Shown: positions 56,962 to 64,000, counted from the first letter of the stretch. The stretch: 64,000 nt of DNA from Escherichia coli (GCF_044324785.1 NZ_CP172127.1); one strand, 5' to 3'. Program-made: numbers and translations. Notes: generated by a model from the letters alone, not told the origin.

Positions 56962-58632
56962 ATGGATAATGCAGAACTCGCCATTGGTATCGATCTCGGC
57001 ACTACCAATAGTTTAATTGCCGTCTGGAAAGACGGTGCCGCGCAATTAATTCCAAATAAGTTCGGTGAATATTTAACACCATCCATAATTAGCATGGATG
57101 AAAATAATCATATTTTAGTCGGAAAACCCGCTGTATCACGGCGCACTTCGCATCCGGATAAAACGGCAGCGTTATTTAAACGTGCAATGGGCAGTAATAC
57201 CAACTGGCGGTTAGGCAGCGACACATTTAACGCGCCAGAACTGTCCTCTTTGGTATTACGCTCATTAAAAGAAGATGCCGAAGAATTTCTGCAACGTCCG
57301 ATTAAAGATGTGGTGATCTCCGTTCCGGCTTATTTCAGCGATGAACAACGCAAGCATACCCGTTTAGCAGCGGAGTTAGCCGGGTTAAATGCGGTACGCT
57401 TAATTAATGAACCCACAGCAGCTGCGATGGCATATGGCCTGCATACGCAACAAAATACCCGCTCACTGGTTTTTGATCTCGGTGGCGGCACGTTTGACGT
57501 CACGGTGCTCGAATACGCCACGCCGGTGATTGAAGTTCACGCCTCCGCTGGCGACAACTTTCTTGGCGGCGAAGATTTTACTCATATGCTGGTGGATGAA
57601 GTTTTAAAACGCGCCGCAGTGGCTAAAAACATGCTCAACGAAAGTGAGCTGGCAGCCCTGTACACCAGCGTGGAAGCGGCAAAATGCGGCAATCAATTAC
57701 CGCTGCAAATTAGCTGGCAGTATCAGGAAGAAACGCGTGAGTGCGAATTTTACGAGAACGAACTGGAAGATTTGTGGTTGCCGCTGCTCAATCGCTTGCG
57801 AGTGCCGATTGAACAGGCGTTGCGCGATGCACGTCTGAAGCCAAGTCAAATCGACAGTCTGGTGCTGGTTGGCGGCGCATCACAAATGCCGCTGGTGCAG
57901 CGAATCGCCGTACGTCTGTTTGGCAAATTACCATATCAAAGTTACGACCCGAGCACCATTGTCGCGCTGGGCGCAGCAATCCAGGCCGCCTGCCGCTTAC
58001 GCAGTGAAGATATTGAAGAGGTGATCCTCACTGATATTTGCCCTTACTCGTTGGGTGTTGAAGTTAACCGCCAGGGCGTTTCCGGCATTTTCTCGCCGAT
58101 TATTGAACGAAACACCACTGTACCGGTGTCGCGTGTAGAAACTTACTCGACCATGCACCCGGAACAGGATTCAATTACGGTTAACGTCTATCAGGGAGAA
58201 AATCACAAAGTTAAAAATAACATTCTGGTGGAATCCTTCGATGTGCCGTTGAAGAAAACCGGGGCTTATCAGTCGATTGATATTCGCTTTAGTTATGATA
58301 TCAACGGGTTGCTTGAAGTTGACGTGCTTCTGGAAGACGGCAGCGTTAAGTCCAGAGTCATTAATCACAGTCCTGTAACATTGAGCGCACAGCAGATTGA
58401 AGAGAGTCGGACGCGGTTATCCGCATTGAAAATTTATCCGCGCGATATGCTCATCAACCGTACCTTTAAAGCCAAACTGGAAGAGTTGTGGGCGCGGGCG
58501 CTGGGTGACGAGCGAGAAGAGATCGGCCAGGTGATCACCGATTTTGATGCGGCGTTGCAGTCAAACGATATGGCCCGCGTCGATGAAGTTCGGCGACGGG
58601 CGAGCGATTATTTGGCAATTGAGATCCCTTAA
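56962..58632 (+). CDS. hscC: Hsp70-family chaperone HscC
   Basis: 556-aa ORF with Hsp70 N-terminal motif IGIDLGTTNS and DLGGGTFD. Confidence 0.95.
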   Translation: MDNAELAIGIDLGTTNSLIAVWKDGAAQLIPNKFGEYLTPSIISMDENNHILVGKPAVSRRTSHPDKTAALFKRAMGSNTNWRLGSDTFNAPELSSLVLRSLKEDAEEFLQRPIKDVVISVPAYFSDEQRKHTRLAAELAGLNAVRLINEPTAAAMAYGLHTQQNTRSLVFDLGGGTFDVTVLEYATPVIEVHASAGDNFLGGEDFTHMLVDEVLKRAAVAKNMLNESELAALYTSVEAAKCGNQLPLQISWQYQEETRECEFYENELEDLWLPLLNRLRVPIEQALRDARLKPSQIDSLVLVGGASQMPLVQRIAVRLFGKLPYQSYDPSTIVALGAAIQAACRLRSEDIEEVILTDICPYSLGVEVNRQGVSGIFSPIIERNTTVPVSRVETYSTMHPEQDSITVNVYQGENHKVKNNILVESFDVPLKKTGAYQSIDIRFSYDINGLLEVDVLLEDGSVKSRVINHSPVTLSAQQIEESRTRLSALKIYPRDMLINRTFKAKLEELWARALGDEREEIGQVITDFDAALQSNDMARVDEVRRRASDYLAIEIP

Positions 58633-58640
58633 ACACGGCT

Positions 58641-58671
58641 GCCGGATGCGGCATAAACGCTGCATCCGGCA
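58641..58671. repeat. REP-like element between hscC and djlC
   Basis: GCCGGATGCGGCATAAACGCTGCATCCGGCA. Confidence 0.6.
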
Positions 58672-58691
58672 TCGGCGCAAAAAACACTTCC

Positions 58692-61512: not shown

Positions 61513-62940
61513 TCACCCGAACAGATGGAGTATTTTCCCTATCAAACCGGCAAAGATAAAAATGTAGAAAATAATTTTGATGACGCCCAGACAGCCCGGC
61601 CCACCATCGTCAACGGGCATTGGCTGCGGTTGCGGCTCCGGTTCGACGGTTTGCTTCTCGGTAAAATTTGCCGCCTGAATTAATAATCGACGAATCATTA
61701 ATGCTTCCAGTGGACAACGATCTTCTGCATCAAGGCGGCTCACAATCGGCATTAATGATTCTTCTGTCGGTTGGCTGGCCTGAACTAATTGTTTAGCAAC
61801 TAAATATAATGGCCATAAGGGATGTTCTGTATCACGCGTGAGTGAGATTCGCGGCTTACGTCCTTTGTGCAAAACCATCTCGACCAGAGAACGCCCCAGC
61901 GCAGAGAGTTTTTCATCACTGAGTATTTCGTATAAATGAAAACGCGTACGAGCGCTGTCACCAGGGACATAAAGTAGCGGTTTTCCCTGATCGTTAACCA
62001 GATCACGCGCTTCAATCATCATCACCACTAATGGGTAATAATCGACCCGATGCTGACGGCACCATTGCAACATTAAAGCATCCGCCTGAGTGGAGGGATA
62101 CTCGCGCCAGTAGTCACAAAGTTCTGCCAGCAGGCTTTCGCCTTCTCCACAATAGACGCGTTGCGCGTATTCATAATAACGCGCATCTTCATTATCAGGT
62201 TCAGCTTCCCGCCACGACCGGGCGTAATCCAGAAGTTCGGGGATATCCAGACGGCTTGTGCTATACCAGCGGAGTAAATTTCTGTGCAAATTTGCATCAT
62301 CGGGGATGATCACTGCGCGATGTTGCGCTAAATACAATGTCAGCCATTCTGGATGCGATGACCAAATCCGAGCGAACATTTGGTAAAAATCGATGGTGTC
62401 ATTTTGCACGGCAACGGGCAGATGCAGAATGGTCTGGAAGTTAAAAACATTCCCCTTCGCAATGGCATATAAAAAGGATTCCAGTTCTTCTTCGTCTATT
62501 TCCCCGACGTTTTCCTCCTGCAACCACCGCAATCTTTCTGCTAATAACACCACGCACTCGAAGGATAAATGGGCAGTGTTCATGGCGATTGTGCACAGCG
62601 ACCAGCGTAATTCATCAATCTCTTCCATCGAGCAATAATTTAATTGCTGAATGAATCGCTGCCAGGCGGAGGGCAGAAAACGTTCGATATCAGAGGCAAG
62701 TAACGCGCGAAAGGCGAGCAGAATTTCATGTTCTGCTACCTCATATTCTTCTGGTTGCCAAACAGATTTAGCAGGCGACTGCGCAATCCGTAGCGCATCC
62801 TCATACGCCTGACGAAGTTGTTTAAAACCCTGCGGATCGGTTTCTGGATGAAAGGACGGTAACAGCGCCAGATAAGCGCGGCGGATAATATCGACGTCAG
62901 TCGTTTGAGATATATCGAGGATCTGCCAGCAATTTTTCAT
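61513..62940 (-). CDS. djlB: J-domain-like co-chaperone, C-terminal membrane anchor
   Basis: 475-aa ORF paralogous to djlC ([36 protein letters not shown]); C-terminal hydrophobic tail. Confidence 0.85.
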
Positions 62941-63644
62941 AGGTCGCTCATATCCTTAAGCGTTTCCGGGCATGCAGAATAGTAAGCCAATGGTTGCCAG
63001 GACAAGGTAGGGTAATACGCATCATCACTGGCAAATAATTGATAAAACATATCATTGCCGGAATCGTCGTATTCTTTACGCGCTAAGAATTCACGTAATA
63101 ACTGAAGATTATCATCTTCGGGAGACTGCCAATATTGCCGACCAAAGGTATAACCGGCAAAGTATTGCCGCCAGTTACTATAATAACGTAGAGCCCGTAG
63201 ATGAATACGCGACTGGATCCATAGACTTTCTTCTTCACTCAACCAGTTATTAAGTACGCCCATTCGGCTTAAAAAACCCATCCGGACATAATCCCAGGCT
63301 TTAATTCCTCCCTCACCACAGCATTCGGCGGTGCTGGCGACAAATTGCGCATAAGCCTGACCTTGCTCATTTAATTCAGCAAGATAGTCACGCCATTCAC
63401 ATGGCGAATAACGAAACCAGCAGTGATAAAACCCTGCCAACCGCGCGGCATGACCGTTATCAATCATTCGGTGAATTGTGCGCAGCAGGTCATCACGGTT
63501 ATCAATTCCCCAGGAGGAAGAAAGGTCAAAAAAGCGTGTACCTAAATACATTTTGGGGGATGAATGCGAAGGTAAACAGCATTCATTGCGTATTTCCATC
63601 GGAGTGGAAAGTGCAAACAATATTTTTTGCGACTCCATGTCCAT
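62937..63644 (-). CDS. ybeR: DUF1266 protein
   Basis: ORF 62937..63671; ATG at 63644 ([18 protein letters not shown]) 8 nt after AAGGA; stop overlaps djlB start. Confidence 0.8.
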
Positions 63645-63807
63645 ATAATTTATCCTTAAATATTCATTCAATGAATATTAACCACGTTGCGAGGCTCATT
63701 TATTTATACTTTTCTGACGCAACATAATACGCATAAAATAAGGTTTACGCAAAAATGGAACACATAAAAATATAATATGCTTTATATGCAACCATAAGGA
63801 AATGATA

Positions 63808-64000
63808 ATGATTTTTACGTCAAGTTGCTGCGATAATTTATCAATAGATGAGATTATCGAACGTGCTGAAAAAGGCGATTGCGAGGCTCAATATATTATT
63901 GGGTTTTATTATAATCGCGATAGCGCAATTGACTCTCCGGACGACGAAAAGGCTTTTTACTGGCTGAAGCTGGCCGCTGAGCAAGGTCATTGTGAAGCAC
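63808..64000 (+). CDS. ybeQ: Sel1-repeat protein, N-terminal part (3' end beyond window)
   Basis: ORF open to window end: MIFTSSCCDNLSIDEIIERAEKGDCEAQYIIGFYYN...; AAGGA RBS upstream. Confidence 0.7.
   Translation, partial: MIFTSSCCDNLSIDEIIERAEKGDCEAQYIIGFYYNRDSAIDSPDDEKAFYWLKLAAEQGHCEA

Follow-up and report, generated by a model that had tools for sequence, protein, structure and literature searches.

A DUF1266 protein as a candidate third partner of the specialized Hsp70 HscC and its HPE-type J-proteins in Escherichia coli

Introduction

To our knowledge, HscC is the only one of the three Hsp70s of Escherichia coli without a known client or physiological role. We analysed the hscC region at the end of a 64,000-nt stretch of E. 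coli DNA (the window; all coordinates are counted on this whole stretch), in which hscC is accompanied by two pairs of genes, ybeU–djlC and ybeR–djlB, each encoding a DUF1266 protein and a J-protein, and by ybeT and ybeQ, which encode Sel1-repeat proteins. The island itself is known; what is added here is the invariable coupling of ybeU/ybeR-type DUF1266 genes to the genes for HscC and its J-protein, observed at approximately 85 loci, which provides a tangible clue to what the least understood Hsp70 of E. coli does.

The closest described system is HscC–DjlC (Hsc62–Hsc56), the ‘third Hsp70 system’ of Kluck et al. 2002 (via PMC8215388), which, as far as it is summarized in the latter, is encoded by the same genes as those studied here. 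It was published with two components, and work on HscC has so far treated it as a two-part system, whereas the DUF1266 gene is as conserved in the cassette described below as the J-protein gene. In the published system, DjlB and DjlC are class C J-proteins of the HPE type, are encoded beside hscC and are described as tail-anchored (PMC8215388); the experimental demonstration of membrane insertion is limited to DjlC (Peschke 2018, cited in PMC8215388). The ATPase activity of HscC is enhanced by DjlC but by none of DnaJ, CbpA and HscB, and the partnership of DjlB with HscC is assumed in the literature, stimulation having been demonstrated for DjlC alone (PMC8215388). The known phenotypes of the HscC system are Cd2+ and ultraviolet (UV) sensitivity, the former being conferred by deletion of hscC or by double deletion of djlB and djlC (PMC8215388). 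The HPE (His-Pro-Glu) variant of the HPD (His-Pro-Asp) motif has been singled out in recent surveys of J-proteins.

The HscA–HscB–IscU system is similar to the system described here in its specialized Hsp70, its exclusive J-protein and the lack of a GrpE-type exchange factor, and also in a co-encoded small protein bound by the non-J domain of the J-protein, which in the case of YbeU and DjlC is a predicted docking only. Client, J-protein and Hsp70 are co-encoded in the isc operon. The two systems differ in that YbeU and IscU, as well as DjlC and HscB, are unrelated in sequence and fold, that DjlC is membrane-anchored and tetratricopeptide repeat (TPR)-like, and that the client status of YbeU is putative. 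Of the features of a CbpM-type modulator in the CbpA–CbpM system, co-transcription alone is found at this locus, while the gene order is reversed, the Hsp70 is a different one and YbeU has no similarity to CbpM. The eukaryotic TPR J-proteins (P58IPK/DNAJC3) have the opposite domain order, the J-domain being N-terminal in DjlC, and their similarity to DjlC is weak, generic to helical repeats and does not imply common descent.

In our literature search, no paper linked DUF1266 to HscC, and the term DUF1266 returned only an unrelated mention; an earlier mention of the neighbourhood is possible (e.g. in the survey of Barriot et al. 2020). YbeU, YbeR and the Sel1 proteins are not mentioned in the Hsp70 review PMC8215388. 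A comparative paper noted the cassette in K-12 and LT2 and assigned no function to it.

Conservation of the three-gene cassette outside E. coli

Genomes were scanned with an 8-sequence alignment of YbeU-like proteins as the seed, and the six-frame open reading frames (ORFs) of the loci obtained were searched with the E. coli proteins. This gave 78 loci from other Escherichia species, Klebsiella, Rahnella, Erwinia, Pectobacterium, Brenneria, approximately 55 Pseudomonas species, Marinobacter and Bowmanella. The single seed pattern biases this set towards the YbeU clade, a bias that was offset by 12 exact-sequence look-ups of more distant DUF1266 cluster representatives.

A DjlB/DjlC-like (Djl-like) gene was located directly after the DUF1266 gene in all 76 scan loci with at least 300 bp of downstream sequence, and an HscC gene adjoined the Djl-like gene in all 71 with at least 4 kb. 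The DUF1266 and Djl-like genes overlapped by 4 nt (ATGA) in the scan loci except those of Pectobacterium and Brenneria, where the overlap was 1 nt (TAATG), and both the adjacency and the stop/start overlap persisted down to approximately 29% identity (Marinobacter). In the window, the TGA stop of the DUF1266 gene and the ATG start of the J-protein gene likewise share 4 nt (ATGA), at 60140–60143 and 62937–62940, and both junctions contain the sequence CTATGAAAA. Since this 4-nt (or 1-nt) overlap recurs in every related locus examined, its presence in E. coli is not due to chance. The HPE motif was kept at residues 30–33 in all but two of the Djl-like genes of related loci.

The same neighbourhood was detected beyond the range of the seed. 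For the distant stand-alone DUF1266 representatives, with 22–35% identity, an Hsp70 and a Djl-like neighbour were present in seven of the seven loci on long enough contigs (P0165, P0172, P0185, P0132, P0153, P0183 and P0174), the Djl-like neighbours being called by precomputed Pfam PF27158 and/or a phmmer/HPE check. The gene orders in the distant loci include Hsp70>Djl>DUF1266 and Hsp70>DUF1266>Djl, and some of the proteins matched Vibrio, Enterovibrio or Shewanella proteins. At one locus (L090), the Djl-like gene is present only as a 57-residue HPE J-domain start at the contig end, and the contig of P0188 stops 370 bp past the DUF1266 gene, where an HPE J-domain has already begun. Clustering of the ORFs from 13 loci chosen to represent different genera and species showed that only the DUF1266, Djl and HscC families recurred, and the flanks were unrelated.

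The conserved core is thus a stand-alone DUF1266 protein, a Djl-type J-protein with HPE and an HscC-type Hsp70, without a Sel1 protein. An earlier note on this DNA had proposed that the DUF1266 and J-protein genes are coupled, an idea that would have failed if the genes were unlinked outside E. coli; the scan and the distant loci decisively show the linkage, and the overlap is kept throughout the scan loci. An exhaustive HMMER search with YbeU gave 356 representatives of 50% identity clusters at E≤1e-3, and the Hsp70/J-protein linkage is a property of the stand-alone cytoplasmic DUF1266 clade among them, being essentially invariant there.

The J-protein itself varies in length and in its C-terminus. 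Outside the Escherichia/Salmonella/Klebsiella group, the Djl-like proteins are about double in length (approximately 890 residues in Pseudomonas, Erwinia and Pectobacterium), with approximately 400 extra helical residues, and end in a C-terminal multi-pass region, not in a single tail anchor (e.g. L025, 10693–13383). The C-terminus of the one Pseudomonas protein tested matched DUF805 (E 1.8e-7). C-terminal membrane segments were present by hydropathy in both the enterobacterial and the Pseudomonas forms, TPR matches were found in the Djl-like protein of L085, and the Djl-like proteins of L091 end in Sel1 repeats. The C-terminus (tail anchor, DUF805 or Sel1/TPR) looks like a swappable localization or scaffold module as judged from these sequences, which suggests how HscC-type systems may be retargeted. 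A profile survey of Djl domain architectures was dominated by enterobacterial matches and added little.

Components of the E. coli system

The ORF list was compared with the Prokaryotic Genome Annotation Pipeline (PGAP) annotation of the best match, E. coli strain N3, to which the window is 98.8% identical across 8 kb (a chromosomal match). ORF calls and annotation agreed on the genes of the last 7 kb, and the gene coordinates and ATGA positions of the earlier note were reproduced exactly.

The hscC gene (56962–58632, + strand; ORF, PGAP name and NCBIfam) encodes a protein of 556 residues. It matched the NCBIfam DnaK and HscA models over residues 7–482 with E values of 1e-112 to 1e-115, and its scores of 377–385 bits are far below the DnaK/HscA equivalog cut-offs of 620–822. 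The hscC product is a full-architecture Hsp70 that is neither DnaK nor HscA, and its orthologues carry the precomputed match PF00012.

The djlC gene (58692–60143, − strand) encodes a protein of 483 residues, described as a class C J-protein, in which a probable J-domain with HPE is followed by a helical solenoid of TPR-like character and, at the C-terminus, by a tail anchor. Its Pfam DnaJ match is marginal only, and HPE replaces HPD at residues 31–33 (codons at 60045–60053, − strand, by translation). The paralogous djlB gene (61513–62940, − strand; 475 residues) likewise has HPE, at 62842–62850; DjlC and DjlB are 52% identical (E 1e-152), and DjlB orthologues carry the precomputed Pfam match PF27158 (DjlB_C_2nd). 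A hydropathy scan gave one segment above threshold in each J-protein, located at the C-terminus as in a tail anchor: residues 458–482 of DjlC (58698–58772, − strand) and 449–467 of DjlB (approximately 61540–61596). The same scan of HscC, YbeU, YbeR and YbeQ gave no hydrophobic segment. The hydropathy and the literature agree with the suggestion of the earlier note that the system is membrane-anchored. Its further statement that DjlB and DjlC are co-chaperones of HscC stands for DjlC, which stimulates HscC, and is an assumption of the literature for DjlB.

The DUF1266 genes ybeU (60140–60847, − strand), the stop of which overlaps the djlC start, and ybeR (62937–63644, − strand; start per annotation, with a TTG extension possible to 63671) each encode 235 residues. 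YbeU matched DUF1266 (Pfam PF06889) over model positions 2–175 of 175 with an E value of 4.4e-45. YbeU and YbeR align along their whole length of 235 residues without a gap, at 60% identity (E 2e-106).

Predicted structure of YbeU and of the YbeU–DjlC pair

The AlphaFold2 (AF2) model of YbeU, obtained from 111 sequences, had a mean predicted local distance difference test score (pLDDT) of 94.6 and a predicted template-modelling score (pTM) of 0.91. It is all-alpha with 12 helices, and the predicted fold is compact and all-helical, without a solved relative. From its N-terminus to its C-terminus, DjlC is predicted to consist of a J-domain, a solenoid resembling TPRs and a tail anchor.

YbeU and DjlC were also modelled as one linked chain, YbeU–(GGGGS)5–DjlC(1–440), with a 25-residue linker and with 24 species-paired and 61 unpaired rows. 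This chain gave a mean pLDDT of 87.4 and a pTM of 0.82, and the regions below a pLDDT of 50 were the linker (237–260) and the loop after the J-domain. The DjlC solenoid makes up approximately 51% of the chain and YbeU approximately 34%; by arithmetic from the largest rigid body of approximately 51%, the pTM ceiling for a freely placed YbeU would be approximately 0.55. Since the pTM of 0.82 is above this ceiling, the position of YbeU relative to DjlC appears to be confidently predicted, and the model is suggestive of a YbeU–DjlC complex.

Duplication of the DUF1266–J-protein pair and its distribution in E. coli

In Salmonella, the gene order is ybeL, a ybeQ homologue, ybeR–djlB, ybeU–djlC, hscC, a gene for 412 residues and rihA. 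The ybeR–djlB and ybeU–djlC pairs are directly adjacent without ybeT, and the ybeQ homologue (331 residues, 50% identity) occupies the same position as in E. coli. The orthology of the pairs agreed with synteny. HscC is 83% identical between E. coli and Salmonella, and YbeU, YbeR, DjlC, DjlB and YbeQ are 49–64% identical. The gene for 412 residues, located between hscC and rihA (L093, 14082–15320), is without an equivalent in the E. coli window, and its product gave no Pfam match (best E 0.3).

The two E. coli units are only approximately 66–69% identical in DNA, indicating that the duplication is old. The comparison with Salmonella indicates that the duplicated unit is the DUF1266–J-protein pair and that its duplication predates the split of Escherichia and Salmonella; as Salmonella has both pairs and a ybeQ homologue and no ybeT, ybeT is a later addition in Escherichia. 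A second, independent duplication of the pair around one Hsp70 was found in the metagenomic locus L091, where two tandem DUF1266–Djl pairs flank a single Hsp70 gene. The tandem Sel1/DUF1266/J-protein units of the earlier note are therefore paralogous in their DUF1266 and J-protein genes, but YbeT and YbeQ are not equivalent and Salmonella is without ybeT. Its proposal of two substrate or adaptor variants holds in so far as two paralogous pairs accompany one Hsp70, adaptor and substrate being among several roles that the data allow.

Among 5426 complete E. coli genomes, approximately 3690 contained both units, approximately 750 (approximately 14%) contained a part of the island and approximately 980 (approximately 18%) contained only rihA; the rihA end of the region was matched in 5421 of the 5426. 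In the genomes with only rihA, ybeL directly follows rihA, which represents a clean absence. ST131-type strains, which belong to the partial group, are without djlB–ybeR and the 5′ end of ybeQ. In the B strain ATCC 11303, djlC and djlB form a frameshifted hybrid of the kind that recombination of the paralogues would leave, and this strain also has ybeR and a ybeQ with an internal stop. The seven-gene island can be dispensed with, and its parts other than the Hsp70 evolve fast.

In Escherichia sp. MOD1-EC7003 (L002), DjlB/DjlC-like fragments were observed at 3648–5003, approximately 1 kb beyond ybeQ (6055–7047); these could be a decayed third unit.

Sel1 proteins and regulation

The ybeT gene (60949–61503, + strand; Pfam and hydropathy) encodes 184 residues with three Sel1 repeats (PF08238, E 1e-11 to 3e-5). 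Its N-terminus (60949–61017) has a hydrophobic segment at residues 5–23, followed by the Lys/Arg-rich sequence PKKTTLRDK. Since this sequence is unusual after the hydrophobic segment of an exported protein, the Sel1 domain of YbeT may face the cytoplasm; an older annotation describes YbeT as an outer-membrane protein (PMC5797941). The ybeQ gene, the 5′ part of which is located at 63809–64000 (+ strand) and is truncated at the window end, encodes a full protein of 325 residues with 7–8 Sel1 repeats, seven at E≤0.001 and an eighth at 0.002, and no hydrophobic segment. YbeT and YbeQ match at the repeat level only (33–37%), and differ in length, repeat number and N-terminus.

A phmmer search of the scan loci with YbeT and YbeQ detected Sel1 genes only in three other Escherichia loci, and none beside the cassette in more than 70 non-Escherichia loci. 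The two Djl-like proteins of L091 (361–2586 and 5765–8119), both of which end in Sel1 repeats, matched YbeT/YbeQ at 1e-22 to 1e-34. In the first of these proteins the HPE motif is lost and reads HTPSE; its J-domain may be inactive.

Both ybeT and ybeU–hscD(djlC) belong to the H-NS regulon and rise jointly on SlyA overexpression (PMC5797941). This co-induction is consistent with their common divergent control region (60848–60948), which is AT-rich by composition (28% GC, 101 bp); the divergent region between ybeR–djlB and ybeQ (63645–63808) is likewise AT-rich, with 27% GC. The island is silenced by H-NS and poorly expressed. Considering the Sel1 fusions of L091 and the joint rise of ybeT and ybeU–djlC under SlyA, the Sel1 proteins are plausibly connected to the HscC system. 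The older YbeQ and the Escherichia-specific YbeT probably serve as lineage-specific accessory scaffolds and not as core parts.

Possible roles of the DUF1266 protein

We favour, with reasonable though limited confidence, a tripartite specialized Hsp70 system in which the DUF1266 protein is the third partner of the HPE J-protein and HscC. In the proposed mechanism, the DUF1266 protein and the J-protein would be produced from one mRNA with translational coupling, and the DUF1266 protein would bind the helical solenoid of its cognate J-protein at roughly 1:1, forming a membrane-anchored recognition module. The J-domain of this module would recruit HscC and trigger ATP hydrolysis, as published in vitro for DjlC only; the target of HscC would then be either a client that the module presents close to the membrane or the DUF1266 protein. 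Through the duplication of the pair, one Hsp70 would be served by two diverged modules in Escherichia and Salmonella; elsewhere, a DUF805 membrane domain, or Sel1/TPR repeats fused to the J-protein, occupies the corresponding C-terminal position. If DUF1266 is indeed a universal coupled third partner, this would be the first functional context for this Pfam family, and may explain why the role of DjlB with HscC has only been assumed, since DjlB may need YbeR.

A number of observations weigh against this tripartite system. First, about one third of the complete E. coli genomes are without all or part of the island, and HscC, DjlB and DjlC are below the detection limit of proteomics in growing cells (PMC8215388). 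Second, the in vitro stimulation of HscC by DjlC is summarized in PMC8215388 without mention of YbeU, so that J-domain function as such apparently does not require YbeU, and the predicted YbeU–DjlC complex is read from the pTM of a single linked AF2 chain. Third, the DUF1266 domains of Actinobacteria, Firmicutes and others are extracytoplasmic or belong to multidomain proteins, and are without Hsp70/J-protein neighbours; such multidomain or exported proteins had no chaperone neighbours in the three of three loci examined (an actinobacterium, a termite-gut contig and a 952-residue two-copy protein). The residues W45, H65, W117, D118, R121, R127, E139, W158, G168 and W172 of DUF1266 are near-invariant, including in Hsp70-independent lineages. 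As these residues are common to lineages without an Hsp70 partner, DUF1266 probably possesses its own intrinsic activity or ligand, a property that would suit a client or effector no less than an adaptor. Finally, anchoring is not universal, as the Sel1/TPR-fused Djl forms of L085 and L091 are without a hydrophobic segment.

The roles of adaptor, dedicated client (IscU-like) and CbpM-like modulator are all compatible with the data on DUF1266. As a dedicated client, YbeU or YbeR would itself be bound by the solenoid and handed to HscC, and its remodelling would switch the activity or ligand state of DUF1266 at the membrane. Such a role agrees with the co-encoding of client, J-protein and Hsp70, as in the isc operon, with the polar and aromatic near-invariant residues kept in lineages without Hsp70, which argue for a function of its own, and with the action of DjlC on HscC without YbeU in vitro (PMC8215388); the strict 1:1 coupling and the predicted docking to DjlC are as compatible with a client as with an adaptor. 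However, no HscC-binding motif is known in YbeU, and YbeU is predicted to be very well folded and compact, and nothing points to a need for remodelling; we regard the client role as possible but rather unlikely. About equally tentative, and rated slightly lower, is the related idea that stand-alone DUF1266 is the working part, that is, a ligand-binding or enzymatic module with an all-helical fold not seen before, the activity of which at the inner membrane would be gated by its private Hsp70/J-protein pair in an IscU-like manner. If this were true, HscC systems would represent a widespread gamma-proteobacterial ‘chaperone-gated switch’, in which duplicated, fast-diverging DUF1266–J-protein pairs would give different specificities, possibly for envelope, metal or phage stress.

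The CbpM-like modulator, in which YbeU or YbeR would be a specific regulator, most simply an inhibitor, that limits the recruitment of HscC until a signal is received, has a precedent in E. coli in CbpM, the gene of which shares a transcript with cbpA and which binds the J-domain of CbpA specifically and blocks access of DnaK. YbeU/DjlC and YbeR/DjlB were also duplicated and have diverged pair by pair, as a specific regulator and its target would. We consider this role improbable, as the DUF1266 gene comes first, opposite to the order of cbpA–cbpM, and universal retention at approximately 85 loci would suit an obligate subunit better than a brake that can be dispensed with.

It is slightly more doubtful still that the island is an accessory stress or anti-phage module, i.e. 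a mobile, fast-evolving conditional system in which the chaperone parts would control an effector and not housekeeping proteostasis. Its patchy distribution among the 5426 E. coli genomes, its genomic context, which varies among genera and includes a plasmid-borne DUF1266 gene in Erwinia persicina, the faster divergence of the partner proteins than of HscC between E. coli and Salmonella, and its AT-rich, H-NS-silenced control regions are consistent with such a system. In addition, a transposon-directed insertion-site sequencing (TraDIS) screen with phage challenge placed ybeT among its top hits; a ybeT knockout, however, responded to that phage as the wild type did. In PADLOC-DB v2, HscC, DjlB/DjlC and YbeU/YbeR had no match, and the Sel1 proteins matched the PtuA model only marginally (TPR-type), with 0 stretches passing. 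The island has occupied the same chromosomal rihA–ybeL site in E. coli and Salmonella since before their split, this site is no defence hotspot, phage matches to the cassette were tiny unannotated fragments only, and the phenotypes described so far are sensitivity to Cd2+ and UV (PMC8215388).

That the DUF1266 protein and the J-protein act independently and share an operon by history only is highly improbable: our literature search found no experimental interaction data and DUF1266 is present without Hsp70 in other phyla, but adjacency with overlap in 76 of 76 loci, from Enterobacterales to Pseudomonas, Marinobacter and Bowmanella, the survival of adjacency in rearranged gene orders at 22–35% identity and two independent duplications of the pair as a pair all stand against it.

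Other features of the locus and minor observations

The rihA gene is located upstream of hscC (55910–56878 as the longest ORF, annotated start approximately 55943; + strand; ORF list and PGAP). As the earlier note had described, hscC and djlC are convergent; the spacer between them has 59 bp. This spacer contains a repetitive extragenic palindromic (REP)-like perfect hairpin (58636–58674; sequence and folding) with a folding energy of −29.6 kcal/mol (z −6.6 relative to shuffles). The REP core GCCGGATGCGGC is present in 6 copies in the window, compared with 0.66 expected. An Rfam search over 56000–64000 gave no match, and a scan for consensus promoters and terminators was uninformative, the sites being fewer or no more than in shuffles.

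In many of the Pseudomonas loci (L009–L078), the convergent 3′ ends of the Djl-like gene and hscC appear to overlap by 4 or 7 nt, which leaves no room for a terminator between them. A second Hsp70 ORF beside hscC in some Pseudomonas loci was rejected as an artefact, being a long open frame upstream of the true start. Two database records look like E. coli contamination: a contig end of ‘Paenibacillus sp.’ (L006) with 98% identity to E. coli ybeU, and a DnaJ-like protein of ‘Trichuris trichiura’ (AlphaFold database, A0A077ZGN2) with 94% identity to the E. coli protein. E. coli plasmid matches were mostly mislabelled chromosomal records, and among all plasmid matches only those of Erwinia persicina look genuine. 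In Erwinia persicina, the DUF1266 gene is located on large plasmids of 130–165 kb (matches H83–H86).

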